IMG/VR virus record: IMGVR_UViG_3300037066_000002
Coordinates: 1 to 62,870 of that record
Length of the DNA stretch: 62,870 nt
Direction: 5' to 3' (one strand)
DNA from: a virus
Taxonomy: Duplodnaviria > Caudoviricetes
The notes under the pieces were generated by a model. It saw only the letters and a program-made list of their open reading frames with translations. It searched no databases and was not told the DNA's origin. The position numbers and the translations under genes are program-made. This document shows positions 4,345-62,870 of this stretch, piece by piece (the stretch's first letter is position 1; every line of letters begins with the position of its first letter).

Positions 4345-5325
4345 ATGAGCAACCTACCCGCCCGCCAGGAGCGCATCATCTACGATCTTCCCGCCTCCGA
4401 ATACCACGCCACGCCGGGACTCAGCCACAGCGCCATGAAGGATCTGATTATCTCCCCGATGCGCTTCTGGCATAACCACGTCCGCCCTGACCGTGAGCCG
4501 CAGGAAGAAACCGATTTCATGATCTTCGGTCGCGCCCTGCATTCGGCGGTGCTGGATACGCCGGAAGTATTCGACGCGCAGTTCTGCTGCGAATACGTAG
4601 CGCCACCGGATGCGCTGGAAAAGTCAGACGATATCAAGCAGTGGATTAAAGACAACGGCGGGAAGCCCACTGGAACCGTCAAGAGCGCGCCTGGAGGCTG
4701 GATCGACCAGGCCCTTGCGATTGATCCGCATGTCGTGATACTGGAGCGCGAGCAGCGCCGTCATTTCGCCAGGAACGAAGGCAAACACATCCTGAAGTCC
4801 GAGGACTGGAGTCGCCTCGCGGGATGCGCGAAGGCACTGATGGATGAGCCGGAATTTCAGCGACTCCGGGCCGTGGGACGATCCGAGGTTTCGTACTTTG
4901 TGACCGACCCCGATACCGGCGTACCGCTCAAGGCGCGAATGGATTTCGTCGCGCCGAAGTGGACGCTGGACCCGAAGACTTTCAGCCAGAAGGGTAAGCC
5001 GATTGATCGGACGGTTGCGGACGCGATCTACTTTGAGGGGTATTACCGGCAGGCCTACCTATACACGACGATTCGCGAGATCGCCGGCGAAGGAAAGACG
5101 GATTTTATCAACCCGTTCGTGGAATCCGAGGAGCCGCACGAAGTCCGCATCCGCCGTCACAATCAGACAAGCCTGCTGTGGGAAGTCGGGCGCAGCGAAG
5201 TCATCCGCCTGATTCGCCTGTACGCGAGCTTGATGGACAGGTTCGGCACTGACAGACCCTGGCGCACAAACGCGACGGTTGACGATTTGATGGATGAGGA
5301 GATTAAGGGGCTGGCATGGACGTAG
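4345..5325 (+). CDS. RecE/exonuclease VIII-like PD-(D/E)xK nuclease (DUF3799-like)
   Basis: EYHATPGLSHSAMK, FGRALHSAVL, LKARMD...DPKT, YYRQAYLY. Confidence 0.85.
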   Translation: MSNLPARQERIIYDLPASEYHATPGLSHSAMKDLIISPMRFWHNHVRPDREPQEETDFMIFGRALHSAVLDTPEVFDAQFCCEYVAPPDALEKSDDIKQWIKDNGGKPTGTVKSAPGGWIDQALAIDPHVVILEREQRRHFARNEGKHILKSEDWSRLAGCAKALMDEPEFQRLRAVGRSEVSYFVTDPDTGVPLKARMDFVAPKWTLDPKTFSQKGKPIDRTVADAIYFEGYYRQAYLYTTIREIAGEGKTDFINPFVESEEPHEVRIRRHNQTSLLWEVGRSEVIRLIRLYASLMDRFGTDRPWRTNATVDDLMDEEIKGLAWT

Positions 5326-6269
5326 ACGAGTTTGAGGTAATCAAAGCCGAGCGCATTTCTGTACCGCTGCTAATTTCGCTGTCGGGCACCAGCGGAAGCG
5401 GTAAGACTTTTTCCGGCCTGCTGTTGGCGGGAGGAATCGCGGGCGCAGATGGGCAGGTCGGCATGATCGACGCCGAGAACGGGCGCGGCTCTCTCTATGC
5501 CGACGATCCCGACATCATGAAGGCGATTCCGAAGGGATATCTTCGGACTGCGATCTCCGCGCCGTACAGTCCACAGCGTTACATCAAGGCGATCAAGGCG
5601 CAGGAAGCGGCCGGCGTCACGGTATGTCTGATCGATTCCACCACCCATGAATGGGAAGGTGAGGGCGGATGTACGGACATCGCCGAGAACAACAAGATGA
5701 AGGGAATGCCGAACTGGGCGATGGCGAAGCGCGAGCATAAGCGATTCCTCGCCTACTGCCTGTCTTCCCGGATGCACATAATTTTCTGCCTCCGAGCGCG
5801 CGACAAGGTGAAGATCACGCCGGATAACAAGGTCATCCCGATTGGAATTCAGCCGATCGCAGAGAAAAATTTCGTTTTCGAGATGCTGATCTCGCTGATG
5901 TTCGATGAGGCCACGCACCAGTACTCGTGCCTGAAGGTGCCGAAGATGCTGACTGCTACGTTCCCCGGCGGAAAGCTCATTACGAGGGAGCACGGCTTAC
6001 TGATTCGCCAGTGGAGCGACGGAGGACGCGCAGAAGATCCGATGGAGTCCGTCCAGAAGCGCGCCAGGTCCGCTGCTGAGTTGGGCATGGAGGAGTATCA
6101 GGCGCTGTTCTCTGGGCTTACGAAGACCGAACAGAAAGCGCTGGCATCCACTACCCACGCGGCGAATAAAAAGATTGCGGAAGACTTCGACAAGGCGGCA
6201 AAACTGGCCGCTGAGGCGGAAGAAGCCGAAGCCGCAGAACTGAAGCGCCGGGGCGTCATCCCGGAGTAG
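5316..6269 (+). CDS. AAA ATPase, Sak4-like recombinase
   Basis: Walker A GTSGSGKT, IDAENGRG, LIDSTTHEW; adjacent to exonuclease. Confidence 0.85.
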   Translation: MDVDEFEVIKAERISVPLLISLSGTSGSGKTFSGLLLAGGIAGADGQVGMIDAENGRGSLYADDPDIMKAIPKGYLRTAISAPYSPQRYIKAIKAQEAAGVTVCLIDSTTHEWEGEGGCTDIAENNKMKGMPNWAMAKREHKRFLAYCLSSRMHIIFCLRARDKVKITPDNKVIPIGIQPIAEKNFVFEMLISLMFDEATHQYSCLKVPKMLTATFPGGKLITREHGLLIRQWSDGGRAEDPMESVQKRARSAAELGMEEYQALFSGLTKTEQKALASTTHAANKKIAEDFDKAAKLAAEAEEAEAAELKRRGVIPE

Positions 6270-6291: not shown

Positions 6292-6645
6292 ATGTCAAAA
6301 CGAAAGCACACCGAAGCGCCGGAACCACCAGAAAACGAAACGATTCAGGAGTTAGCCGGAGAGGGCACGCGGCCCAAACTGTCCATTCCTGAGATTCTGG
6401 AGTTAGCCGCGAATCTGACAGCCGCAGGAGATCCACCACCCGCGCCCGAAACTCGCAAGCCCCGCACTCGCCTGACACTGGCCGAGAAGACCCAGAAATT
6501 TCTGGCCGGTATCGAGGCAATGAAGAAGAAGCACTCCGACAACGTTCTGGAGAAGGCTGGAGCGGTGCAGTCCGCCATGATGGCTCACGATTCCGCCAAG
6601 GCCGAACAGGCGAAGTTTCTGGAGTCGCTGAAGGGGCTGCCTTAA
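6292..6645 (+). CDS. Hypothetical protein
   Basis: AAGGAG RBS. Confidence 0.7.
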   Translation: MSKRKHTEAPEPPENETIQELAGEGTRPKLSIPEILELAANLTAAGDPPPAPETRKPRTRLTLAEKTQKFLAGIEAMKKKHSDNVLEKAGAVQSAMMAHDSAKAEQAKFLESLKGLP

Positions 6646-6935
6646 TGACCGAACAGGACTTGAGGGACAAACTAAAGGCTGAAGTCTGGAGTCAGCATAA
6701 TGCCGCCACGATGGAGGCGAACCAGCAGAATCTTAACGTGGCTCAGGGTATGACCGGAATCGGCGCACAGATCGGAAATCCCAGGCAGACTCTTCGGGAG
6801 CGTTTAGGCAGCGCGATCCGCATTGGTGAAGATGTTAAGTCGATCGCCAGGAACGCACGCGAACTTGATGCTCTGCTATCGAAACATCCCGACATCGCGC
6901 GGATTCTCGATCTGTACGAGGAGTTTAGGTACTAA
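6645..6935 (+). CDS. Hypothetical protein
   Basis: TAATG coupling. Confidence 0.7.
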   Translation: MTEQDLRDKLKAEVWSQHNAATMEANQQNLNVAQGMTGIGAQIGNPRQTLRERLGSAIRIGEDVKSIARNARELDALLSKHPDIARILDLYEEFRY

Positions 6936-6939
6936 ACCT

Positions 6940-7087
6940 TCCCCGCGAAATCCAAACCGAATCCGCCAAAGCGGGCACGCTTGACCTCGGGGGAGGAACC
7001 GGGTTCGGTCGCGGGGATAAAACAGTTCCGGCAAATCCAACCCGGAAGCGCCAAGTATACGCAAAATCGGCGCTTCCGGTGCCGGAG
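6940..7087 (+). ncRNA. Twin long hairpins, each with a 5' bulge AAAUCCAA
   Basis: CCCCGCG/CGCGGGG plus ACCGA/TCGGT; TCCGGC/GCCGGA plus CCGGAAGCGCC/GGCGCTTCCGG; AAATCCAA at 6948 and 7033. Confidence 0.6.
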
Positions 7088-7180
7088 AAAGAGAGAGTTA
7101 CGCGATGAACGAAACTAAGCACACGCCGACACCGTGGGAAGTCCCGCTACAACAGTTTTTTGAATTGGTGGAGGATATCA

Positions 7181-7672
7181 ATGCCTGAACAGACGCCGCT
7201 GGAACTGGCAAAACGACTGGATTTACTGGACACTCTACAGATCGCCAAAGACTGTATTGCTGATCATACTAACAGGAGAAGAGAAAATAATTGCCCTTGT
7301 GTTGATTGCAAATTGTCCCGCGCCCTGATCGAAGTCACCGCCGAGCGGGACGCGCTACGGAACCCCCTCGGATTATTTGATATGCACGGCCAGGAATGCG
7401 GAAACTGTGGCGTGCGACTCGTGACTGTAAACGGAAGGCCGGCGCTTTCCGAATTGAGGCCGGACACGATTGCGATATGCGGGCGATGCGCTGGTGCCGA
7501 AATTGATCGCGTAGAAAAAGAGCGGGACGCGCTACAGGCCGGGGTGGACGCCGCAAATCGACATTTTCTGATGAGCGATCAGGAACTTCTGGCAATGTGG
7601 AAAGATAGCGCGGCGTACATAAACGCTGCTAGCTCAGCCGCACGGAGAAGGTATGATCTTAGACCTGAATGA
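7181..7672 (+). CDS. Mosaic Cys-rich protein carrying a copy of the scaffold C-terminal motif
   Basis: GGAGGA RBS; CxxC pairs; MSDQELLAMWKDSA. Confidence 0.7.
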   Translation: MPEQTPLELAKRLDLLDTLQIAKDCIADHTNRRRENNCPCVDCKLSRALIEVTAERDALRNPLGLFDMHGQECGNCGVRLVTVNGRPALSELRPDTIAICGRCAGAEIDRVEKERDALQAGVDAANRHFLMSDQELLAMWKDSAAYINAASSAARRRYDLRPE

Positions 7673-8219
7673 AATTCGCAAGAAAAACAAACTGCATTCG
7701 AGCCGTGCCGTAAGGCCGGAAGAGATCGATGCGATGCTGGATCGGATCGAGGAACTTCAGAGGCTGAACGCGGAACTTGTGAAGAGTTCTCTCCGGGATT
7801 GGCTTAAATCTCCCGCTTTCCAAACCTTCATAGATCTCAAGCATGGGCCCATCGGAACCATCCTAATGCTTTTACAGGAAGGCCAGATCAGCCGAGGGAA
7901 GTGCGCTGAGGCTTTGGCGGAATTAGCCCACGGCATTGCACCTGAGGACGTGCGACTGCCTGCGTTCAGCGAGTCTATGTTCACTGACGATCAGACTCCC
8001 GCTGAAGTGTGCGCTGCCAAAGACGCCGAGATCGAATCCCTACGGAAGACGCTGGAGGCGGTACGGGAGAAGGTTGAGTCGGCTCCGCATTATGAGGAGT
8101 GTCAATCCGACTACACCTCCTCATCGGAGGGCCTGCCAGATCCCTGCGACTGCTGGAAAGCGCCCGCGCTCTCCCTGATCGACGCAGCCCTGAAGCCGAA
8201 AGAGGAAGAACATCTATGA
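7653..8219 (+). CDS. Hypothetical protein
   Basis: ORF with RBS, operon context. Confidence 0.65.
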   Translation: MILDLNEIRKKNKLHSSRAVRPEEIDAMLDRIEELQRLNAELVKSSLRDWLKSPAFQTFIDLKHGPIGTILMLLQEGQISRGKCAEALAELAHGIAPEDVRLPAFSESMFTDDQTPAEVCAAKDAEIESLRKTLEAVREKVESAPHYEECQSDYTSSSEGLPDPCDCWKAPALSLIDAALKPKEEEHL

Positions 8220-8293
8220 GCAGAGAATCAGAGATCCGCCGTTGAGCGCCCGTTCTTTTACCGCGCAGTGGCGATGGACTAAAAGGAGAGAAG

Positions 8294-8956
8294 ATGAGAG
8301 AGCCGACCGAAGAATCGTTTCTGAAAGATGTCTCGAATCACCAGATCAAGTTTTTGAAGGACGAATACCTTTACAGGCACATTCGCTTTCGTCGGCAGGA
8401 ATCCGGCAACATGTGGTTCGACTTGGTTACGTGGCCGAACGTTTTGACGATTCACGGCGATATGGGAACGTGGACGTTCTCGCGGGTCGAGGACATGCTC
8501 ACCTTCTTCCGTGATTCCAAACTCAGGATCAATCCTTCGTACTGGGCCGAAAAGTTGCAGCACGGCCAGTTCAGCGGTCGGGAAGGTGCTAAGGTTTGGG
8601 ACCAGGACACGTTTCAGGAGCGCTTGCTGGATCAACTAAAGGATCGCTTTGAGGACGAGCCAGAAAAACTAGCCGAAGTCAAAGCGGCTGTCGAGGAAGA
8701 GGTGTTTCGGCTTCACGACGGCGATGGTCCGCACATGATGCGCCACGCGGCTTACGAGTTCACGCACGAGTTTGAAACCAAACCGGGCACTCGGAACGGT
8801 GAGAAGTTCCAGTTTGACGGAATGGAACTTCCAGACGGCATGGTTTATTCATACCACTTCATCTGGTGCCTGTACGCCATCGTGTGGGGAATCCAGCAGT
8901 ACGACGCAATGCGGAGCGCTCCGGTAGAAGGAATGACGCTTATCAACAGTCGCTGA
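8294..8956 (+). CDS. Conserved phage hypothetical protein
   Basis: YRHIRF...WFDLVTWP..LTIHGDMGT..FSRVEDML.FFR...INPSYWAEK; AAGGAG RBS. Confidence 0.8.
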   Translation: MREPTEESFLKDVSNHQIKFLKDEYLYRHIRFRRQESGNMWFDLVTWPNVLTIHGDMGTWTFSRVEDMLTFFRDSKLRINPSYWAEKLQHGQFSGREGAKVWDQDTFQERLLDQLKDRFEDEPEKLAEVKAAVEEEVFRLHDGDGPHMMRHAAYEFTHEFETKPGTRNGEKFQFDGMELPDGMVYSYHFIWCLYAIVWGIQQYDAMRSAPVEGMTLINSR

Positions 8957-9185
8957 GCGTGCTTCCGATCCCTCGACAGGTCAATCCGATCCCGGCCTTT
9001 CTCAGCCTCGACCAGGCCGAATCCCGCTGCATCAGCAGGGTGGCGTTGAGCGTGTCCATCTGCGTTAGGAGTTGCGCCGCCTCTTCCAGCGGGACCGGGT
9101 GCCATTCGCCGGCAGTGTCGTCGCGGTAGAGGATGCCGCCCTCGGCCTTGTAGCGGCTTCCGGGGTTGGTCTGGTGCCCAGTCAT
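8943..9185 (-). CDS. Hypothetical protein
   Basis: ATGA-coupled to 9182-9286. Confidence 0.55.
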   Translation of the reverse strand: MTGHQTNPGSRYKAEGGILYRDDTAGEWHPVPLEEAAQLLTQMDTLNATLLMQRDSAWSRLRKAGIGLTCRGIGSTLSDC

Positions 9186-9286
9186 TTCTTTCCGGGGCAA
9201 AGATGGGCGCAGCCAGACACGATGAGCTTGTACTGGCCGCATATCGGACAGAGCGCCGTCGGGACGTGGATGATCGGAAGAGGCAT
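9182..9286 (-). CDS. 34-aa Cys-rich mini-protein
   Basis: MPLPIIHVPTALCPICGQYKLIVSGCAHLCPGKK; abuts genes on both sides. Confidence 0.5.
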   Translation of the reverse strand: MPLPIIHVPTALCPICGQYKLIVSGCAHLCPGKK

Positions 9287-9457
9287 TTACTTCGCAGTGC
9301 TGGTGTTGGTTGGAGCGAACACAATAGAGAGTTCGGTGAGAAGGTTGGCGAAGTTGTTCGGCTGGAGAAGAGACGATGCGCCGTTAGCTATGGTGGTGGC
9401 GTATTCCTGATCGGCGATCAGGGCGAGTTGGAGGGTCAACAGGATGTATTTGTTCAT
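9287..9457 (-). CDS. 56-aa hypothetical protein
   Basis: MNKYILLTLQLALIADQEY...; TAGCAT -10 box 6 nt upstream. Confidence 0.5.
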   Translation of the reverse strand: MNKYILLTLQLALIADQEYATTIANGASSLLQPNNFANLLTELSIVFAPTNTSTAK

Positions 9458-9637
9458 GCCTTTATGCTACCGCTTTTCGGCTGTCTGCGGTAAGATGGAA
9501 CCTAAATCAGACGATGCTGTTCACCGCGTAACCTGCACGCATCTGCTCAAGAGAAAGACTCGGAACGCTCATCGGAGTATGCGGCGATGGCGAGATGCTT
9601 CCGGGTCTACCCACTTCGCCAGATCCTGTAAATCTGC

Positions 9638-10225
9638 CTACCGGCTCACCCTGAAGTCCGCCTTAACTGCCTTCGCATCCATCTCCACCAGGACTACAGC
9701 CGGGGGAGCGCAGCCGCCCGCAACAAGCTGGAGCGGATCGGGCAATGTGGCCTGCTGGTAATTGAGCATCGATTGCACCGTGGTCGCCTGCTGAATGATC
9801 GGGATGAGTTGCGATCCCAGGATGGCGGTATCAGTCAGGCCGTTTTTCCATGCCGCAGATAACCCGCCGAGAGAAGTAGCCACCGCCGCACCGGAAACGA
9901 CCGCTACACCGATGCGTAGGCCGATGGCTGTCTTGGTGGACCCTTGTGCGTGCGCGATCACCTGGAGAGCGACGAGAGGCGCGAGGACAGTCATGCCGGC
10001 GGGGATTGCGGCCGGGACTTGCATCACCGCCGCGAGGGGAACCGACACAGACGCCGCGCTCGTATTACAGACCTGGATACTCGCCATGCGGTATTGTTTC
10101 GCCAGTGGCCCGAAGGTGGCCTTGGTTGATGCCTGGCTCAGGACTGTGGCCGTTACGTGCAGGGCTTCAGATGTCTGCGCATACGCTGAGAGCGCGAATA
10201 GAAATGAGAGAGTATATCTTGTCAT
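9638..10225 (-). CDS. Secreted or envelope protein
   Basis: Signal peptide MTRYTLSFLFALSAYA-Q; internal hydrophobic stretch. Confidence 0.75.
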   Translation of the reverse strand: MTRYTLSFLFALSAYAQTSEALHVTATVLSQASTKATFGPLAKQYRMASIQVCNTSAASVSVPLAAVMQVPAAIPAGMTVLAPLVALQVIAHAQGSTKTAIGLRIGVAVVSGAAVATSLGGLSAAWKNGLTDTAILGSQLIPIIQQATTVQSMLNYQQATLPDPLQLVAGGCAPPAVVLVEMDAKAVKADFRVSR

Positions 10226-12323: not shown

Positions 12324-12547
12324 GCCTGATCGCTTCCGGCCCTCTGCCCGCAGCTTAGGGATTGGGCCGATCCGCAAAATAAACCGCCGCCGCTTCTACC
12401 GCTTCGCAACTCAGCCGGTAACCCAGGCAAGGGAGCAGCCGCCACACGCTTACGATCCACGGTGACGGCCACGGCATTCGCTTTGAGCCTGACTTCCGCC
12501 CGCGCTTGTGCTTAGAGTAACTGTGGTACTTCGGTCGCATCAGCGCA

Positions 12548-21588: not shown

Positions 21589-22863
21589 TTACCAACTCCC
21601 TGTCGGAATCGCGTGATCGCGAAGCCATGAGCCGTCCATGAAGGGCATCGGTGCCCAGGGCGTCTGATCCTGGTAGACCATATCGCGGATCGCCGTCGAA
21701 TCGTCCTTCAACTCCAGGTCCATCGCGTAGCGCTCGTACTGCGCGGAGTGTCGAGCGGCCAGCGCCAGCGAGAAATACGGGTTTGGCGCGTCAGCACTGA
21801 CCCCCGGATACATCGCGCACTTCTCCAACGCTTTTTCGAGGATCACATCCCGGCGCACGAACGGCGGCAACTGCGGATTATTCTCGTCAAACGGCGGAAT
21901 CTTTGCCACGTACAGAAACGGATAATAGTAAAGCTGCGTCATCGGGTGGGGCCACATCTCATAGCGCGGCGAAACTTGAGACTGCGTATAGTCCTGAGCA
22001 CAGTTCGACACAAAGACGTTGCCGACCACATAGGCCGTTAGTGCGGTCGGGAAATACACCTGCACGCCGTCAGACAGATTTATCGGGTTATTGTCGCCTA
22101 CCAGTTGCGGGGGAGAAACTGCCGTCCCCACGCCGTTGCTGATGCGGAACCAGGTGAACGCCAGCGACCCGTCCCCCGGATTTCCTCCCGTCGAGATTGT
22201 GACCACATATGTCGCGCTGCCAGGGTACGAGTACCCGAATGTCGTCGTCGCGGTCGGAGCGGGGCCGCTGCCGGAAACCTGAAGAATCGCGCCCACATTG
22301 CCCTGCGATCCGTTTAGCCCGCCCCCGTAGTCGATAAAGCTCACGCATCGCGGCGTCTGGTTCTGCGACCGTTGCGGGTCCCAAAAATCCAGTTGTGGCT
22401 GCATGATGTTCGTGTGGAGTTTGAAGTTGTTCTGGACATCCTTCAGCGTCAACCATTCGCGGAAGTCGGCAGGCGTCGGATAATATGCCTGGTAAATCAG
22501 GTACGACTGTGTAATCTGTTGCTGGCCGATCCACGGCTGATCGAGGACCAGGGATGTTGCCGAATTCACCGCTGAAATCGTGTAGATCGGCGTGTAAATC
22601 CCGAAGCGGAACTGGCGACCGATGAGTGTCTGGTTCCAGTTCGTTCCGCTGCCGGTGACGTTTGCCGTATTTGGGGTCGCCGTCGCCGTCCCCGTGTTAA
22701 TGAGGTTTGGCGGGGCGAAAGTTGAATTACGAATCAGCCACGACCACTCCCGGCGTTCGGCGAACTCCTGAAACGCATCCTTCACAAACGCCTGCGCCTG
22801 CGCCGGATCAACCGGCGCACGCAACAGGACGTTGTTCCAGACAGAACTGAATTCGTTTGCCAT
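21589..22863 (-). CDS. Head-tail adaptor protein with inserted beta domains
   Basis: N-terminal helix ...EFAERREWSWL; YEMWPHP; VTGSGTNW insertion. Confidence 0.65.
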   Translation of the reverse strand: MANEFSSVWNNVLLRAPVDPAQAQAFVKDAFQEFAERREWSWLIRNSTFAPPNLINTGTATATPNTANVTGSGTNWNQTLIGRQFRFGIYTPIYTISAVNSATSLVLDQPWIGQQQITQSYLIYQAYYPTPADFREWLTLKDVQNNFKLHTNIMQPQLDFWDPQRSQNQTPRCVSFIDYGGGLNGSQGNVGAILQVSGSGPAPTATTTFGYSYPGSATYVVTISTGGNPGDGSLAFTWFRISNGVGTAVSPPQLVGDNNPINLSDGVQVYFPTALTAYVVGNVFVSNCAQDYTQSQVSPRYEMWPHPMTQLYYYPFLYVAKIPPFDENNPQLPPFVRRDVILEKALEKCAMYPGVSADAPNPYFSLALAARHSAQYERYAMDLELKDDSTAIRDMVYQDQTPWAPMPFMDGSWLRDHAIPTGSW

Positions 22864-22869
22864 TCACCG

Positions 22870-23130
22870 CTACCGACACCAGACCGAGACGACCTCGTTC
22901 ATAGTATTGGATGAGTTAAAGGTGATGACAAGCGGCTGAGTTCCGGCGACCGATACGGAGGTCACAAGACTTCCCGGCCCAAGGTCCACCTTAATCAGGC
23001 TGGCGAAGTTGAGGCTCCAGGTTGATCCGGTAGGCCCCGCGATGTTCGCCGTAACCTTTTGCTGATCTCCCACCACGCTCTTGATGATGGAAGGGGCCGA
23101 ATACGGCCCGGTGAGTGTAAGTGCCGCCAT
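22870..23130 (-). CDS. Small structural protein
   Basis: Position, TAATG coupling. Confidence 0.6.
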   Translation of the reverse strand: MAALTLTGPYSAPSIIKSVVGDQQKVTANIAGPTGSTWSLNFASLIKVDLGPGSLVTSVSVAGTQPLVITFNSSNTMNEVVSVWCR

Positions 23131-23708
23131 TAGTCCACGCTCGCAATATCGACATCGACCGTAACGGTGTACGGGCTGCTACCCGTGGGAACCGCTCGAA
23201 TGATGCCAACCGGGGGATAGGGAGGCGCCGTGCCGATGGCCGAAGCCGTGACGCTGGGAACCGTGGTCGAACTCGCCGGGATGGCGATCTGACCCACGGT
23301 GCCGCTGTTGTCGGAGTTGACCAGAACGCCGTTGCCCTTTTGGAGCACATCGACGTAATAGCCGGCCGTCGCAGCAACACGGAAGATCCCGGCCACCGCA
23401 TTGCGCTGGGCGACACCAGTGGAGCCAGCCACGTTCGGCGAACCAGCGAGAGCAAAGCGAGAATCGTTGGTTACGATCTTCTTGCTCTTGTCTAACCAGT
23501 AGGCCAGTTGCGTTGCGAGCACAGCGCCGGTTGGGGTGGCCGAAGTTGCGCCCGAATCGACCTGCACGCGCTGGTACTTGTTGCCGGAGTTGTAAAACTG
23601 CGCTCCGAGTTCGGCGGGTGCGTAGAGAGTCGCGACGTTCGTGGCGTCCGCGTTTGCGCCGTAGATATACGGGTTGATGCTGAATCCAACATTGGTTGTT
23701 TGTGCCAT
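23130..23708 (-). CDS. Capsid decoration/cement-like protein
   Basis: Directly after MCP, strong RBS, Ala/Gly/Thr-rich. Confidence 0.6.
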   Translation of the reverse strand: MAQTTNVGFSINPYIYGANADATNVATLYAPAELGAQFYNSGNKYQRVQVDSGATSATPTGAVLATQLAYWLDKSKKIVTNDSRFALAGSPNVAGSTGVAQRNAVAGIFRVAATAGYYVDVLQKGNGVLVNSDNSGTVGQIAIPASSTTVPSVTASAIGTAPPYPPVGIIRAVPTGSSPYTVTVDVDIASVD

Positions 23709-23735
23709 GATAGTTTCTCCTTTTCTCCCGTATTC

Positions 23736-24857
23736 TTAGGCGTTGAACCCGTAGACCCACTGGTGCAGGTAGGGAGTCGGAACCGTGAGGTTGACACCCA
23801 TCAGGCACAAGCCGGTAAGAACGGTCGAGTTTGCTTCGGGAATGAATTCGCGGAATCCGCCCTGATAAACGCCGTCGCTGGAGATGTAGAGGTTCAACTT
23901 CTCCTTGCGGGCATTGAGGATCAGTATGGACTCCGAGGACGGAACCTGAAGTGTCGGGTACGGCTGAAGCGCCGCATTCGGTCCCTGGCCGAGAGTTTCG
24001 GTCAGCACCTGAACGGCGACCTTGTTGGCGCGGGTTCCGGCGGTTGCGATATCGGAGCCGGGGACGTAGCGCGAAGCCATGACCACGGAGCCGTTGAATT
24101 GCATACCAGTGAAGCCTGCGTCCAATTTGACGTTCTGGAAGCGCTGCTGCGTCTGGAAGCGATTCTGGATGATGCCGTAGCCTTTCGGCGTGGTCATCAG
24201 CGTGTTAGGCTCCCATTCTCCGGTGCCCTGATAGCAGTTGAAGTACTGCGAGTTCAGGACATCGTACTCGATGGTTCCGGGAGTTGAGCCGCTACCGATA
24301 TTGTACGGAGTCGAGTTCAGGGAAGATCCCACAACGCCGTTGCGAGTGTTCTGGCCGTAGTAAACATACGTGTTCCCGAATGGACCTACCGTGGTTCCAT
24401 CGCTCAGCGCTTCGTCGAAGCCGTTGACGTTGGCCGCATAGGATGCCTGACCGTTCAGGTAACTCATGATGCTCAGGAACGCGCCGATGGCCATCATGCC
24501 TTCAGCCACACGCGCCTTGATGAGTTTCGTGACCGCGAGCGGTCCACGGTTGAGAACCTGAATGTCTTCGGCGTACAGCGTTACCGCGACTTCGACGTAT
24601 TTCATGTCGAAGCGGAGTTGCTGTTCCGTCTGCTTCTGGATGACGTTGAACTTCTTGCCCTTCTGGTAGAAGCCGCCAGGGAGCACGTCATACAGGAAGT
24701 TTTCGTTGATGGACGAACCGCCGGCGAATTCCTTTTTGAAGGAATTCCGAAGCATGTACGTCAGGCCGTCGTGGTTGAAAAGGTTGTCGTAAATCTCCGG
24801 TTCTGTGGAGATCAGACGGCGAGTGAATACATTAATCTGATCTAAGCCGTCAGGCAT
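23736..24857 (-). CDS. Major capsid protein
   Basis: 373 aa between scaffold and decoration genes; IYDNLF, GG.SINE, QQRF...AGFTG.QFNG. Confidence 0.8.
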   Translation of the reverse strand: MPDGLDQINVFTRRLISTEPEIYDNLFNHDGLTYMLRNSFKKEFAGGSSINENFLYDVLPGGFYQKGKKFNVIQKQTEQQLRFDMKYVEVAVTLYAEDIQVLNRGPLAVTKLIKARVAEGMMAIGAFLSIMSYLNGQASYAANVNGFDEALSDGTTVGPFGNTYVYYGQNTRNGVVGSSLNSTPYNIGSGSTPGTIEYDVLNSQYFNCYQGTGEWEPNTLMTTPKGYGIIQNRFQTQQRFQNVKLDAGFTGMQFNGSVVMASRYVPGSDIATAGTRANKVAVQVLTETLGQGPNAALQPYPTLQVPSSESILILNARKEKLNLYISSDGVYQGGFREFIPEANSTVLTGLCLMGVNLTVPTPYLHQWVYGFNA

Positions 24858-24988
24858 AGTAAGGGCGCTCCCGCGCTGGAGGCCATGCGCCCGGTTGACG
24901 GAAAAATCAGATGAAAGCGAACGCCAGAAGTCTGGAGTGCGAAACGGTCAGGTTGGCGACGTAACGGATGAATGAATCCGTTATGGTG

Positions 24989-25795
24989 TTACGCCGCGCG
25001 AGACTTTGCGCCGGGGGCGCTATCGTTCCACATTGCCAGAAGTTCCTGATCACTCATCGACTTCTCTGCCACTCCGGTCTTTGGCCGGTCGTAGAAACTG
25101 GGAGGAACTTCCTGATTACCCTGCACGGCATGGACCCCGGCGCGAGTGAGCGCGTCACGGACCTTTTCGGCGGCGTAGTCTTCTTTTTCCTTCGTCAGTT
25201 TCTGCTGTTCCATTTCGCGAACTCGCGGGCCGACATGCTGCTCGTAGGCTCCCGCGTAGGTCACGCCCTTTTCGGCCATGATTCTGTTCATCGCCGTTAC
25301 ATCTTCAACGGTCAGCTTGAGGCCGCGAGTCTGAGCGTCGGCAAGAATCGCCATCTGCTCCGTGCTCATAGCCGAGAATCGCTTCCCTTGTTCGTCCAGC
25401 ATGGCCTGAACCTGCTGCATAGTCATACCAGTCGCCGCTGCGGCATCCCGAACTTCAGTCCTGGAGGAATCGGCATCGAGAGCGCCGAAGCGTTCCTGAT
25501 ACCTGGCAAGGGCAGTCTGCTGATCTATGTAAGCCTTGTAAGTTTTGGACCCGGCGCCTTGACCCGCATATTCCCCTTTCCCTTCCCACCAATCTTGCCA
25601 TCTCTTAGCCGTAGCCGCTTGCGGTTCAAGGTTGCGCACCTTGTCCAGTGCCGAGCTATATTCGGAATGGCGATTGTCGCGATTCTCGATCTCCTTCCAC
25701 TGCGGCTGAGAAAGCGCCACGTTGACCTGTTCATCAGTCAACCCTGCCCCCTTCGCCATCGCTTTGAAGAGATCAACTGCCTTGTCGTTCGTCAT
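24989..25795 (-). CDS. Capsid scaffolding protein
   Basis: Helical charged protein upstream of MCP with short C-terminal amphipathic helix. Confidence 0.7.
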   Translation of the reverse strand: MTNDKAVDLFKAMAKGAGLTDEQVNVALSQPQWKEIENRDNRHSEYSSALDKVRNLEPQAATAKRWQDWWEGKGEYAGQGAGSKTYKAYIDQQTALARYQERFGALDADSSRTEVRDAAAATGMTMQQVQAMLDEQGKRFSAMSTEQMAILADAQTRGLKLTVEDVTAMNRIMAEKGVTYAGAYEQHVGPRVREMEQQKLTKEKEDYAAEKVRDALTRAGVHAVQGNQEVPPSFYDRPKTGVAEKSMSDQELLAMWNDSAPGAKSRAA

Positions 25796-25925
25796 TGAGT
25801 GCCAGCCCCTCCTCGGAGCCTACTCGTTCAAAAATCGTTTGGTCCGGGTATGGACTGGAATCCACTATCTCCCATCGATTACGCGGTTGTTCTCAATCAT
25901 TTGAACTAGGCCGAACCAAAACCCT

Positions 25926-29689: not shown

Positions 29690-29737
29690 AAAAATATCTT
29701 ATCACAACAGGGTAATTCGTGGTAAGATTTTCTTGTG
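29687..29737. promoter_or_regulatory. Palindromic back-to-back promoters; possible recombinase site
   Basis: 21-bp arms (17/21 identical) around a 9-bp spacer; each arm reads TGN-TAAGAT-N6-GTG. Confidence 0.6.
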
Positions 29738-30637
29738 AGCACCGAATTAGTACCGATTGACGTTTCGATTCAAGAACTTGCAACGGCTTGTGTCGCTCGG
29801 CTTGCGCCGAACACTCAGCGGGCGTATGCCACCTACATCTCCGAATACCTGCGAATGAAGATTCCTGTCACCCGCGAGGGAATCAGCGCATGGCTGGCAA
29901 AACGAAAGCAGTATGGGACTGGCGCAGTAACGATCAATGTTGCGCTTGCAGCGCTCAAGTTACTGGCGCGTGAGGCGTGGATTCGCGGGCTGATGGACGG
30001 CGACTGCTACCACGCGATTGACGACATCAAATCTGAAAAGGTTCTTGGGCAGCGGCTCGGCCAGTGGACGGACGAAACCGGAGTCGAGAAACTTCTGGAA
30101 TCCTGCATCGACAACCGGGAGCGGGCAATAATCGCGATCATGTGCGGCTGCGGTTTGCGCCGGTCGGAAGTATGCGCCCTGAAATGGGGCCAGTATCGGG
30201 AGGCGTCGGGGCGCATGGTGCTTGCCGACATCATCGGTAAAGGTGGCCGCATCCGAAGTCTCGGCGTTCCTGAATGGGCCACACAGATGATCGAAGCGTA
30301 TCGCGGCGACGAAGCGGACCCGAACGCTCCTGTTTTTCCGTCGAACGCTCGAATCGGCCAGATCGGCGCTAATAAGCACCTTACCCCGTTCGGACTCGTG
30401 ACTATTATTCAGAAGATTTGTGACCGCGCCGGCGCTGAGCTTCAGAAGTTGCGGTGCCATGATTTGCGACGATCGTTCGCTGGTATGGCACAGTCTGGCG
30501 GGGCGGAAATTCAGATGATCAAACAGGCCCTCGGGCATTCGAGCATCGTCACCACCGAACGGTATCTGAACCAGGTGCAGAACCTGAAGATGGGCAAGAC
30601 GGCGGGAGATCACATCAAGGTAAAGGCGTGTGCATGA
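29735..30637 (+). CDS. Tyrosine recombinase/integrase (Xer-sized)
   Basis: GLRRSE, GKGGRIR, HDLRRSFA, LGHSSIVTTERY. Confidence 0.92.
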   Translation: MSTELVPIDVSIQELATACVARLAPNTQRAYATYISEYLRMKIPVTREGISAWLAKRKQYGTGAVTINVALAALKLLAREAWIRGLMDGDCYHAIDDIKSEKVLGQRLGQWTDETGVEKLLESCIDNRERAIIAIMCGCGLRRSEVCALKWGQYREASGRMVLADIIGKGGRIRSLGVPEWATQMIEAYRGDEADPNAPVFPSNARIGQIGANKHLTPFGLVTIIQKICDRAGAELQKLRCHDLRRSFAGMAQSGGAEIQMIKQALGHSSIVTTERYLNQVQNLKMGKTAGDHIKVKACA

Positions 30638-54025: not shown

Positions 54026-54169
54026 ATGGCTGATTACGCCGAACGAACGCCGCTCCCGGATCACGACAAATGCGCGGCCTGCGGGCATGTCCGCGCGGCG
54101 CATGGCTCGAACGGTATGGTTTGCGGTGCCTGTGGGTGCTTGCGGTTTGTTGCCGAGATAAAACTGTGA
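54026..54169 (+). CDS. 47-aa Cys/His mini-protein
   Basis: AAGGAG RBS; CAACGH...H...CGACGC. Confidence 0.6.
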   Translation: MADYAERTPLPDHDKCAACGHVRAAHGSNGMVCGACGCLRFVAEIKL

Positions 54170-55158
54170 AGGCACCGTTCCCTTGGTTTGGAGGGAAATC
54201 GAAAGTATCCGATCTCGTATGGGATCGATTCGGTGACGTGCCGAATTACATTGAGCCTTTCTTCGGTTCCGGCGCTGTTCTGCTGAATCGCCCACATGCG
54301 GCATCGACCGAGACGATAAACGACCTGGATTGCATGGTGGCCAACTTCTGGCGGGCGCTTCAGAACGATCCAGATGCGGTGGCGTATCACGCCGATAATC
54401 CGGTGAACGAAGCGGATCAGCACGCGCGGCATTTGTGGCTGTGTTCTCAGTCTGAGTTCCGCGAGACGATGAAAGTGGACCCGGAGTTTTATGACGCAAA
54501 AATTGCAGGATGGTGGGTATGGGGACAATGTATCTGGATCGGAGCCGGATGGTGCGCAAAGCAGCTACCTCACCTCGGGAACGCGGGGAAAGGGCTGAAT
54601 CGCCAGCTACCTCACCTCGGGAACGCGGGCACGGGCGTACATCGTAAGCGACCTCACCTCGGCGCGGGCACGGGCGTATGTTTAGCCGAGGAAGAGGACG
54701 CAAGCGACCTCACCTCGGGAACGCTCACCGGACTTTCGATGCGCGCCTACATGCGCGAACTTGCGGAGCGGCTGCGCCGAGTGCGAGTGTGCTGCGGGGA
54801 CTGGTCCCGCATCTGCGGCCCTTCTGTGACTTTCAAGCATGGTATTACGGGTGTTTTCCTCGATCCGCCATACGCGGATACCGCCGACCGGCAAACGGAC
54901 CTGTACAGCGCCGACAGCGCGACCGTGGCGCATGATGTTCGGAAGTGGGCAATCGAGAGCGGGGATAACCCGCTGATGCGGATTGCGCTGTGCGGCTATG
55001 AGGGCGAGCATGCAATGCCGGAATCATGGGATTGCGTGGCGTGGAAAGCGAAAGGCGGATACGGATCGCAAGGAACCGGGCGCGGACGCGAGAACGCTGG
55101 CAAGGAGCGCGTGTGGTTCAGTCCGCACTGCCGCGCAGAGATGGGACTATTCGCATGA
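54166..55158 (+). CDS. DNA adenine methyltransferase (Dam/D12-like)
   Basis: APFPWFGGKS, YIEPFFGSGAV, FLDPPY. Confidence 0.92.
   Translation: MKAPFPWFGGKSKVSDLVWDRFGDVPNYIEPFFGSGAVLLNRPHAASTETINDLDCMVANFWRALQNDPDAVAYHADNPVNEADQHARHLWLCSQSEFRETMKVDPEFYDAKIAGWWVWGQCIWIGAGWCAKQLPHLGNAGKGLNRQLPHLGNAGTGVHRKRPHLGAGTGVCLAEEEDASDLTSGTLTGLSMRAYMRELAERLRRVRVCCGDWSRICGPSVTFKHGITGVFLDPPYADTADRQTDLYSADSATVAHDVRKWAIESGDNPLMRIALCGYEGEHAMPESWDCVAWKAKGGYGSQGTGRGRENAGKERVWFSPHCRAEMGLFA
54562..54724 (+). repeat. Four intragenic ACCTCACCTCGG repeats (QLPHLGNAG units)
   Basis: Three in-frame PHLG units plus one frame-shifted copy (DLTSG). Confidence 0.8.
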
Positions 55159-57298: not shown

Positions 57299-57484
57299 AT
57301 GCCGGAACCCGCCGAAGCACGTATCTATTGCGAAGATTGCCGTTTTTACCAGCCAAGTGAGAATTCTGGTTTCTGCCATATCTTCCCTCCTCGAGTTTTG
57401 TATATCAACGCCACGGAGGACCTGTTAACTGCGTGGCCTGAAGTTGATCTGGCAGACTGGTGCGGGGCCGCGAAGGCCAAGTGA
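57299..57484 (+). CDS. Small Cys-rich protein
   Basis: CEDCRFY...C...PP...WP.V...DWCG. Confidence 0.7.
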   Translation: MPEPAEARIYCEDCRFYQPSENSGFCHIFPPRVLYINATEDLLTAWPEVDLADWCGAAKAK

Positions 57485-59226
57485 CATCGCAGCCCGATAA
57501 CGTATCCGATCCACTCGAATTCCTCGCCGCGCAGGCGCTCGCTGATATGACGTCAGCATACAAACTGGAGTTCGCCCTTGAACTTGCGCGCGCCAAAGTT
57601 TCCGAAGATCCAGTCCGCATTGCCGCCGCGAATGAAGTAATCAGAAAACTCCGGTTGAAGCACGATTCGTTCAGGGTAACCGACCTGAACGACCTGATTA
57701 AATCCCAGCGGGTCCGCGCGCTCTCCGAGAAGGCGGACGCCGATAATAAGACGCGCCCGCCAATCGACGTATCGAAGTGTCCGCTGATCTTTTTCGGGAT
57801 GAACGACGATGGAAACGCCGAGCGTTTGCTTGTCCTGCATCGGGACAAAATGCGCTATTGCCCAGAATTTAAGGCATGGCTGATTTGGGATGGAAGGCGA
57901 TGGGAACAGGATAAATTCGGGAAGGCCCAGGAGTTGGCGGTTGACGCGATGCGGCAATTCCTTTCCCAGGTGCGCGACGACGGGAAGATTTACGAATTCG
58001 CCTTGAAGTCTGTGAACCTGAAGGGCGTCACTAACTGCCTGGCATTGGCGGCTCCGCGCGTGGCTGTCTCCGCCGGGAAACTGGACTCATCTCCGTGGTT
58101 GTTCAACTTCCGCAACGGCACCGTCGATCTGCGAACGGGGGCCATGAAGCCGCACGACCCGGCAGACTTGATAACAAAACTGGCCGATCACGATTACAAC
58201 CTGAAAGCTGAATGCCCGCGATGGCGCGAGTTCGTGAACTGGACGATGGGTGGTGGATCTGAGTCCGATGCGGATCGAGTCGGAAGATTTACAGAATACC
58301 TCCAGCGTGCTCTCGGTTACTCGATCACCGGCAGCACGTCCGAGAAGGCGCTATTCATCCCGTGGGGAGAGAAGGGAAATAACGGTAAGACCACAATGCT
58401 TGTCGTGGTCGGTCGCCTGATTCCCGAGTACTCGGGAATGCTGGACGTGGAAACCCTAATGACACGCAGCCGCTCATCCTCAAACGCCAGCGCCGACATC
58501 GCAGACCTGCGCGGCGTCCGATTCGTTCGCACCAGCGAAGCCGAAACGACGCAGCGTTTAGCCCAAGGATTAGTGAAGAAGCTGACCGAGGGGCAAGGAG
58601 AAGTTAAAGCCATCAAGAAGTACGAGAACTGGGTATCGTTCGCCGCTACACACAAAATCTGGATGGACACAAACGGCCGGCCAAGTTTCGAGGCTGAAGA
58701 CAACGCCATGATGAACCGGATGCACCTGATCCCGTTCCCGGCGAGCCTTGCGGAGTCGGATGTAGACCGAACCTTACCCGATGCACTCGTGAGAGACGAA
58801 GCCTGCGGGATACTCGCGTGGCTGGTGCGCGGCGCGGTGAAGTGGTACAAAGACCGGCTCCGCCGACCGGATGAAGCTGTAGCGGCGCGCGATCAGTGGC
58901 GCGATCAGATGGAAGTTGACGACCCCTGGATGACGGTGATCTCCGACTGGATCGTAGCCGAGGAAATGAAGTTCATGGAGACATCCCGATCATTCGGAGC
59001 GGACTCATTCTTCGATTTCACGGTCGCAGATATCCTAACTAAAGCCATGGGAATGAAAGAGAAGGATCAGGATGTTCATGGTAAGGCCGACACCATACGC
59101 GTAGGTAAGATCCTCGGAAGATTCAAGAGCGCCGACGACAAGCCACAGTTCGAGCGTTACCGGCGACCAGCGGCCCCGCGACCGTGGGCATACCGCCGAA
59201 TTAACCAAGCCCCTGATTCCGCTTGA
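57481..59226 (+). CDS. P4/D5-family SF3 helicase (phage/plasmid primase P4 family)
   Basis: DDGNAERL, WLIWDGRRW, NGTVDLRTG, GNNGKT, ADLRGVRFV..SE. Confidence 0.92.
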   Translation: MTSQPDNVSDPLEFLAAQALADMTSAYKLEFALELARAKVSEDPVRIAAANEVIRKLRLKHDSFRVTDLNDLIKSQRVRALSEKADADNKTRPPIDVSKCPLIFFGMNDDGNAERLLVLHRDKMRYCPEFKAWLIWDGRRWEQDKFGKAQELAVDAMRQFLSQVRDDGKIYEFALKSVNLKGVTNCLALAAPRVAVSAGKLDSSPWLFNFRNGTVDLRTGAMKPHDPADLITKLADHDYNLKAECPRWREFVNWTMGGGSESDADRVGRFTEYLQRALGYSITGSTSEKALFIPWGEKGNNGKTTMLVVVGRLIPEYSGMLDVETLMTRSRSSSNASADIADLRGVRFVRTSEAETTQRLAQGLVKKLTEGQGEVKAIKKYENWVSFAATHKIWMDTNGRPSFEAEDNAMMNRMHLIPFPASLAESDVDRTLPDALVRDEACGILAWLVRGAVKWYKDRLRRPDEAVAARDQWRDQMEVDDPWMTVISDWIVAEEMKFMETSRSFGADSFFDFTVADILTKAMGMKEKDQDVHGKADTIRVGKILGRFKSADDKPQFERYRRPAAPRPWAYRRINQAPDSA

Positions 59227-59315: not shown

Positions 59316-59597
59316 TGTCCCACTTAAATCGAAGCCGTCCCACTTTTTGTCCCACTTTCTGTCCCACTTTAACTCCTTTGTTTTGTAGGTTGTCCCACTT
59401 GTCCCACCAAAAACTGTCCAGACTTTTCTATAGGGGCTACATACAGCCCCAGTATCTGTCTGGATGTCTCTCTTTTTCCCTATAGAATACTTTTACTTCT
59501 TTTAAGTGGGACAAGTGGGACAAGTAGGATTCTAAAGAACTTATAGTGGGACAAAAAGTGGGACGTGTAGTGGGACAGAGGCTCAAAAGGTGGGACA
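59316..59597. repeat. Putative replication origin with inverted iteron arrays
   Basis: Six GTCCCAC (59317-59407) facing six GTGGGAC (59506-59596) around an AT-richer core, just after the helicase. Confidence 0.8.

Positions 59598-62737: not shown

Positions 62738-62870
<133 letters not shown>

Follow-up and report, generated by a model that had tools for sequence, protein, structure and literature searches.

An inverted, in-frame copy of a scaffold-like C-terminal motif in an accessory early gene of a phage genome

Proteins sharing scaffold tails in described systems

In phage 80alpha, the last 16 residues of the scaffold protein (SP) are described as an 11-residue amphipathic helix and a hook, placed on the N-arm of the coat protein (PMC5644958). 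For P22, the C-terminal helix-turn-helix, or hook, of gp8 is reported to dock on the coat N-arm, touching Asp14, Glu15 and Glu18, and to contact the portal too (PMC12005531). The SaPI1 protein CpmB has a C-terminal helix homologous to that of the 80alpha scaffold, takes the coat N-arm site and competes (Dearborn et al., 2017, PMC5644958). In herpesviruses the protease and scaffold UL26/UL26.5 have one common C-terminal tail (PMC12005531), and for T4 IPIII and P1 DarB a short capsid targeting sequence is described as sufficient to send a passenger into the head (PMC9024508).

The window analysed here, a phage genome taken at its full length of 62,870 nt, encodes a 163-aa orphan accessory early protein (P0001, gene A, 7181..7672, + strand) with a copy of the terminal motif of a scaffold-like protein (P0002) close to its C-terminus. 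As far as the published description of CpmB goes, it is the closest precedent, being a non-scaffold protein with a scaffold-homologous C-terminal helix, as in gene A, which matches at 13/14 residues and 40/42 nt and retains each of the five invariant helix residues. CpmB, however, is described as sharing both helix and hook (RIIK motif), whereas gene A shares the helix only, hook and flanking blocks being absent. It is also, in the same description, encoded by a parasitic satellite and redirects capsid size, whereas gene A belongs to a cassette in the phage's own early region; a satellite origin is not indicated, as gene A has phage recombination genes on one side and further early genes on the other, all on one contig.

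Lambda C and Nu3 form another protease/scaffold pair with a shared C-terminal tail. Similarly to this pair and to UL26/UL26.5 as described, gene A and P0002 encode two proteins of one virus with the same tail, which in the described pairs is coat-binding and brings the second protein into the procapsid. These pairs are, by their descriptions, nested in-frame genes with a maturation protease as the passenger, whereas 17.4 kb separate the copies in P0001 and P0002, which are on opposite strands, and the gene A product gave no protease signature in Pfam or PHROG. The signals of T4 IPIII and P1 DarB are described as N-terminal and not as copies of a scaffold tail, with known virion proteins as passengers; in contrast, the motif of gene A is located at residues 131–144 of 163. 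Engineered fusions to the P22 scaffold reportedly load other proteins into capsids, but no sequence relation to gp8 is seen, and the P22 fusions are man-made, while that of gene A would be natural. Gene A is thus outside each of the compared classes (not satellite-encoded, no hook, not nested, not N-terminal) and is at most a variant of the principle.

The 42-nt copy, its donor and its recipient

An inverted-repeat search of the window reproduced the match on which the initial annotation was built: positions 7570–7611 are identical to the reverse complement of 25017–25058 at 40/42 nt. This pair (95% complementary, arms 17405 nt apart) ranks first of 19 listed inverted pairs. First-order Markov simulation of the window, repeated 20 times as the null, gave a best seeded non-local inverted 42-mer of 27–30/42, far below the 40 observed, and the copy is real and non-random. 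In gene A (7570..7611, + strand) it encodes MSDQELLAMWKDSA, residues 131–144 of P0001, and at the 3′ end of the scaffold-like gene (25017..25058, − strand) it encodes MSDQELLAMWNDSA, residues 247–260 of the 268-aa P0002. Both copies are sense and in the same frame close to the C-terminus of each protein, as had also been noted at the outset; the copy is placed ~19–22 residues before the end of P0001. The two mismatches are AGC/AGT (synonymous Ser) and AAA/AAC (Lys/Asn). Since 12/14 codons are identical, a copy made at the DNA level, not convergence, accounts for the match. The longest perfect stretch between the arms is 26 nt, gapped local alignment gave no convincing extension of the match past 42 nt, and identity falls from 95% to background at both repeat edges. 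A six-frame check of the 42-mer found stop codons in 3/6 frames, so for a patch that persists inside an open ORF the odds of being translated into the scaffold peptide were about 1 in 3. The motif is followed by GCGGCGTAC in gene A and by GCGGCGTAA at the end of the scaffold gene; speculatively, these would fit a copied 3′ end minus 21 nt with a lost stop, a fit expected by chance in ~1% of cases.

The donor, P0002 (24989..25795, − strand), is encoded directly upstream of the major capsid protein (MCP; P0003, 23736–24857, − strand, phrog_9953 E 4e-14) and downstream of the portal protein (P0004, 26646–28592, − strand, phrog_156 E 1e-12 and a weak SU10_portal match). The head module, all on the minus strand, is ordered portal, two small ORFs, P0002 and MCP, and the same gene order is seen in L018/G003. 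Among 2031 candidates we found 16 relatives of P0002 at 51–100% identity. The motif is present in 16/16 scaffold-family proteins, with D249, Q250, E251, L252 and W256 invariant and M255 nearly so; together with F234, R237, P238, G241 and A243 these five make up the ten invariant C-terminal residues. The DQELLxMW terminal helix is the most conserved C-terminal block of the family. In the AlphaFold model (16 sequences, mean pLDDT 67.6), P0002 is ~80% helical, with helices over most of residues 3–219. Residues 220–248 have no secondary structure and low pLDDT and are predicted to form a disordered linker, which is followed by a helix at 249–259 and a short tail.

Assignment of P0002 to the scaffolds agrees with its position between portal and MCP and with the predicted elongated helical fold, linker and small C-terminal element. 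No match of P0002 to a described scaffold family was found in Pfam or PHROG, and PDB gave nothing below E 0.2; an Atlas lead (0.87) goes to a cluster with PF09306 on 12% of its members. Judging from position and fold class, we consider P0002 probably a scaffold. The scaffold C-terminal motif named by the initial annotation is upheld as the most conserved C-terminal block and, in the model, as a terminal helix, whereas its family assignment found no counterpart among scaffold families and the annotation of a cultured relative, Tunturi_1, places the scaffold label on a different gene. A scaffold profile run against genome_contigs gave 27 pattern matches and 0 relatives, with no prophage relatives among them. 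When scaffold residues 225–268 were used as the query in a protein search, three candidates were returned, all scaffolds; 13 known family members were missed, which makes this search too insensitive to judge whether other proteins carry the tail.

P0002 can be connected to the Tunturi_1 head module in two steps. It is similar to its L018 counterpart (31% over 195 residues, E 7e-16), which in turn matches Tunturi_1 gp7 at E 5e-9 over 44 residues (gp7 N-terminus); direct comparison of P0002 with gp7 was not significant, and the link runs only through L018. In the Tunturi_1 record (L025, PP887698.1), gp7 (6292–7047), helical, charged and upstream of MCP, is called "hypothetical", and the label "head scaffolding protein" is given to gp9 (8322–8960), an Ala/Gly/Val/Thr-rich product encoded after MCP. 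The positional counterpart of gp9 in the window, P0028 (23130–23708), is rich in Ala, Gly, Ser, Thr and Val, and matches its L018 neighbour at E 8e-20 but not gp9 significantly (E 0.19). Neither gp9, gp7 nor P0028 found a PHROGs family at E <= 0.1 (0 families), and Pfam gave nothing significant for them. The scaffolding label of gp9 may be misplaced. Between portal and scaffold-like gene, L018 (8096–8695) and L025 (5009–5605) carry an endonuclease ORF, annotated as HNH in Tunturi_1, where the window has two small unassigned ORFs instead; the "MAGIIDGEG" stretch of the L018 ORF is LAGLIDADG-like.

The recipient, called an early gene by the initial annotation, is indeed an accessory gene in the recombination ("early") block, which includes an exonuclease (4345–5325) and an AAA_24 ATPase (5316–6269). 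A GGAGG is located 7 nt 5′ of the gene A ATG, and its GC3 is 0.52 vs. 0.64–0.74 for core genes. P0001 consists of a helical N-terminal part with CPCVDC, a CGNC...CGRCAG zinc ribbon, a coiled coil, the copied motif and a 19-residue tail; its single-sequence fold was of low confidence (pLDDT 54). The zinc-ribbon module (7370..7504, + strand) is common to P0022 and P0023. A 16-nt direct repeat inside gene A, GAGCGGGACGCGCTAC (7340–7360 and 7520–7540), places ERDAL on either side of the zinc ribbon. The downstream gene P0024 (188 aa, 7653..8219, + strand) starts within gene A, overlapping its end by 20 nt, and no terminator-like sites were seen on the plus strand from the recombination genes to 9164. 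The C-terminal PCDCWK..AL.L motif of P0024 resembles the P0022 C-terminus (E 2e-5) and P0001 residues 38–52. This likeness points to a modular family, and the early region is an assembly of shuffled short modules.

Searches among 1.84 billion representatives gave three matches to gene A. P0007, on a separate 648-nt contig, is 97% identical to P0001; P0022 (E 3e-5) and P0023 (E 5e-4) are distant, align to residues 54–129 in this search and have in common with P0001 only the zinc ribbon and flanking coiled coil (spans 45–127 and 64–108), and both are without the scaffold tail. Homology to these distant relatives stops at about residue 129 and the copied motif starts at 131, directly after the conserved module. 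A tblastn of P0001 against 50,697 phage records returned only E >= 1 noise, and 146 pattern matches in metagenome_contigs included 0 relatives. Pfam, PHROG and PDB searches of P0001, P0022, P0023 and P0024 gave nothing significant, while the Atlas leads for the gene A group, all <0.9, name Ead/Ea22-like (0.79), Lar-like (0.81) and zinc ribbon proteins.

As the motif is universal and old in the scaffolds and missing from the distant relatives of gene A, the copying went from the scaffold gene to gene A. The copy differs at 2 positions from the resident scaffold allele and at 5 from the L003 lineage. Gene A and most of P0024 form a variable cassette (7022..8156, + strand), which is replaced in G001, a relative 95–99% identical in shared parts. 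G001 holds the flanks 6932–7021 (97%) and 8157–8212 (89%), with ~930 nt of unrelated sequence and two other ORFs between them, and its sole motif match is in its own scaffold gene. Because G001 swaps the cassette, gene A is dispensable. As for the presence of the fusion in relatives, raised by the initial annotation, it is confirmed in the allele P0007 but fails in the closely related G001, which is without gene A. P0001 and P0007 are identical at 140/140 of residues 1–140 and at 13/15 of residues 141–155, and all differences are in the last 23 residues. P0007 keeps every invariant motif residue; its sole motif change, K141N, gives the scaffold's residue, and 141 is the only motif position that also varies among scaffolds. 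The clustering of allele differences in the tail could reflect a relaxed tail. A joint in X4 from 7203 to 7662 was considered as an allele lacking gene A and was set aside as too weak (side of 23 letters, likeness floor 90).

Pattern scans for the motif covered viral_contigs and metagenome_contigs, with both the window's own record and Logan-only contigs outside their range. In viral_contigs, 2/2 hits were in scaffold genes, with no other carrier; of the 5 hits in metagenome_contigs, 3 fell in scaffold genes, and the other 2 were chance matches in unrelated proteins. In G003, a distant relative with a complete genome, the scaffold ends with a different tail (…FLSSMRETWQKSA), and no second tail copy and no gene A relative are present. 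Copies of scaffold tails in other phages, for which the initial annotation had suggested a search, were therefore not recovered: viral_contigs, metagenome_contigs and G003 contained no other non-scaffold carrier.

Readings of the copied helix

The predicted layout of P0002 parallels the coat-docking tails described for 80alpha and P22. Since characterised scaffold C-terminal helices dock on the coat N-arm, the early protein may be expected to display a coat-docking peptide. We tentatively favour the reading that the gene A product is a coat-docking tag or, in analogy to SaPI1 CpmB, a scaffold competitor. The 42-nt patch of the scaffold gene was copied, inverted and in frame, onto the 3′ part of gene A; in this reading, the terminal helix of P0002 would be a coat-docking element like those reported for 80alpha SP and P22 gp8; and the helix would still dock despite the different tail that follows it and the missing upstream F..RP..G.A block. 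The gene A product would then display this peptide and bind MCP, or the procapsid interior, at the scaffold's site. From there it would enter proheads as a passenger or compete with the scaffold, modulating or delaying assembly. A fuller proposal is somewhat doubtful: an accessory early protein of the zinc-ribbon/coiled-coil type would have been given the scaffold's coat-docking helix and would thereby be pulled into proheads as they assemble. It could be carried to the next host as natural cargo or, sequestered while coat protein builds up, act as a scaffold competitor or as a timer coupled to assembly.

Consistent with docking on the coat, residues 1–40 of MCP (23736–23855) are identical in 5/5 rows covering them, while, in those rows that lie outside the window/G001 pair, the scaffolds are 64% (L003 and L020) and 56% (L022) identical to that of the window. 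The MCP N-arm thus appears unusually constrained in these sequences, and the conserved MCP N-terminus would fit a conserved pair of scaffold tail and coat N-arm. Several results speak against docking, however. The copy holds 5/10 of the invariant residues in the scaffold's last 35 positions, F234, R237, P238, G241, A243 and the terminal RAA being absent from gene A. Known capsid cargo is made late, whereas gene A sits in the recombination/early block. The other cassette of G001, the lack of a further non-scaffold carrier in the contigs scanned, the position of the allele differences, the prior of about 1 in 3 for in-frame reading and the missing family match of P0002 weigh on the same side. 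Complex prediction for MCP with P0001 residues 100–163, run without controls, gave scores of 0.00 and 0.00 against a mark of 0.32 and weighs on neither side.

A neutral recombination scar is nearly as likely as a coat-docking graft. Here, a short patch or the scaffold 3′ end would have been joined to gene A by illegitimate or short-homology recombination; placed behind the last module that folds, it would do no harm, and its peptide would be under no selection for a role. The drop of identity at both edges of the match suits this explanation, since it makes them look like junctions and not like decayed homology, and the copy lies in a mosaic region, with a different cassette at this site in G001 and with short PCxC..AL.L motifs found repeatedly at the ends of genes. 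The GC3 of gene A below that of core genes, the concentration of allele differences in the tail and the lack of recurrence in the other genes and phages scanned point the same way, as does the fact that half of the scaffold's invariant tail residues were not copied; the speculative 21-nt deletion with a lost stop, by which GCGGCGTAC and GCGGCGTAA could be related, would fit as well. On the other hand, the patch (247–260) nearly coincides with the predicted helix (249–259), its C-terminal placement is the same as in the donor, and every invariant residue that was copied is kept in two alleles. Moreover, a docking helix that is sufficient by itself would bind physically even if its graft were neutral. 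The shared helix might instead bind a partner other than the coat, such as the portal, a small head protein, a host chaperone or protease, or the protein itself by self-association. The function of the tail is assigned by analogy only, P0002 is without a match to any known scaffold family, and P22 hooks are described as contacting the portal also (PMC12005531). We regard such a partner as improbable, given that docking of the tail on the coat N-arm is a recurrent solution in the solved cases as described and that the invariant MCP N-terminus fits coat docking.

The initial annotation had also proposed that the repeat could invert the ~17 kb between its copies, and a role at the DNA level, either by inversion of these 17.4 kb or as a shared cis-regulatory site, is very unlikely in our view. 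As the arms share one frame, recombination between them would interrupt neither gene: it would swap only the last 8 residues of the scaffold and the last 19 of gene A. Gene A would then be followed by the MCP-to-lysis genes and the scaffold gene by the early genes, so that late and early operons would be rewired. The 26-nt perfect stretch and the phage-encoded recombination genes (exonuclease and AAA_24 ATPase) would favour such exchange, but for homologous inversion such a repeat is very short, the 64 ORFs scanned included no invertase, and in G001 the early block and the scaffold gene are in the same relative orientation. No strand-changing joint at either arm was found in the contigs of 4 runs, and the proposed inversion is accordingly not borne out there; contigs hide rare isomers, however, and this makes the missing joints weak evidence. 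Antisense pairing is excluded, because each copy is sense in its own gene and the mRNAs are the same, not complementary. Least credible of all is an assembly artefact in the form of a chimeric join at a shared k-mer. The window is a metagenome assembly with ends in a hexamer repeat, but Logan contigs from the probable source run, one of 9457 nt over 6900–9735 and another over 22685–25800, agree with it at 0 differences, P0007 encodes the same junction on a different 648-nt contig, and a chimera at the 42-nt repeat would swap flanks and not create the repeat. Misassembly at either copy, which the initial annotation had left to be checked, is unlikely, as both the 9457-nt and the 648-nt contigs carry the junction.

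If the favoured coat-docking graft works, a helix of 14 residues would act as an address label for phage heads that is both portable and evolvable, and the copying of a few dozen bases could be enough for a phage to redirect accessory proteins of its own. Scaffold-tail mimicry, described for a satellite (CpmB) and for nested protease/scaffold genes, would then include phage genes that stand alone, with a minimal natural capsid-loading tag in poorly known soil phages whose nearest cultured relatives infect Acidobacteriota. Its cargo or timer version, if true, would be the natural equivalent of the engineered loading by scaffold fusion and, encoded by the phage itself, an analogue of CpmB. If, instead, the copy is a scar, it would be a clean case of short-patch mosaicism making a new protein end.

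The phage genome, its relatives and further repeats

The window takes in the entire IMG/VR virus record of 62,870 nt, which has a completeness estimate of 99%, and is a near-complete 62.9-kb phage genome carrying an integrase. Of the 64 ORFs scanned, only this tyrosine integrase (29735–30637) is a recombinase; the genome further encodes an endolysin and a primase/helicase. The sole cultured relatives found are the podoviruses Tunturi_1 and Tunturi_2, with a portal identity of 24%, and their host is described as the acidobacterium Tunturiibacter (PMC11924767). A blastn of the head module against 50,697 phage records gave zero matches. Near-identical contigs are contained in peat and permafrost runs, where 44/47 pieces of X2 and 28/31 of X5 are at least 99% alike.

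Both contig ends consist of one hexanucleotide tandem repeat, GGCTMC, with ~56 copies at 6–340 and ~20 copies at 62749–62870; one of its frames translates into an extended Ala-Pro/Ala-Thr repeat. It is probably within this repeat that the assembly broke, so that circular closure or permutation of the genome through it is likely. Contigs in X1 (depth 2.8) and X4 (depth 19.6) join position 12540 back to 9677 (2864 back) with the same 5 inserted letters. This joint may represent a structural variant, a duplication or a small circle across the early/lysis junction.

Further repeats were observed elsewhere in the window. At 508–1023, a 30-nt element that includes the palindrome GGTATACC and, after it, GGGAGAG occurs three times at intervals of ~243 nt, in each case just before a small plus-strand ORF (539, 778 and 1026), which suggests a repeated regulatory or RBS unit or a small-gene array. 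An ORF at 54070–55158 with a methyltransferase-like N-terminus includes 3–4 direct repeats at 54559–54724, with a 42-nt period and the core AGCTACCTCACCTCGGGAACGC. Just 3′ of the primase/helicase gene (57460–59226), inverted repeats of GTGGGACAA-like units (21 nt, 100%; 46 nt, 76%) lie one inside the other at 59336–59565, and this stretch looks like an iteron or origin-type region.
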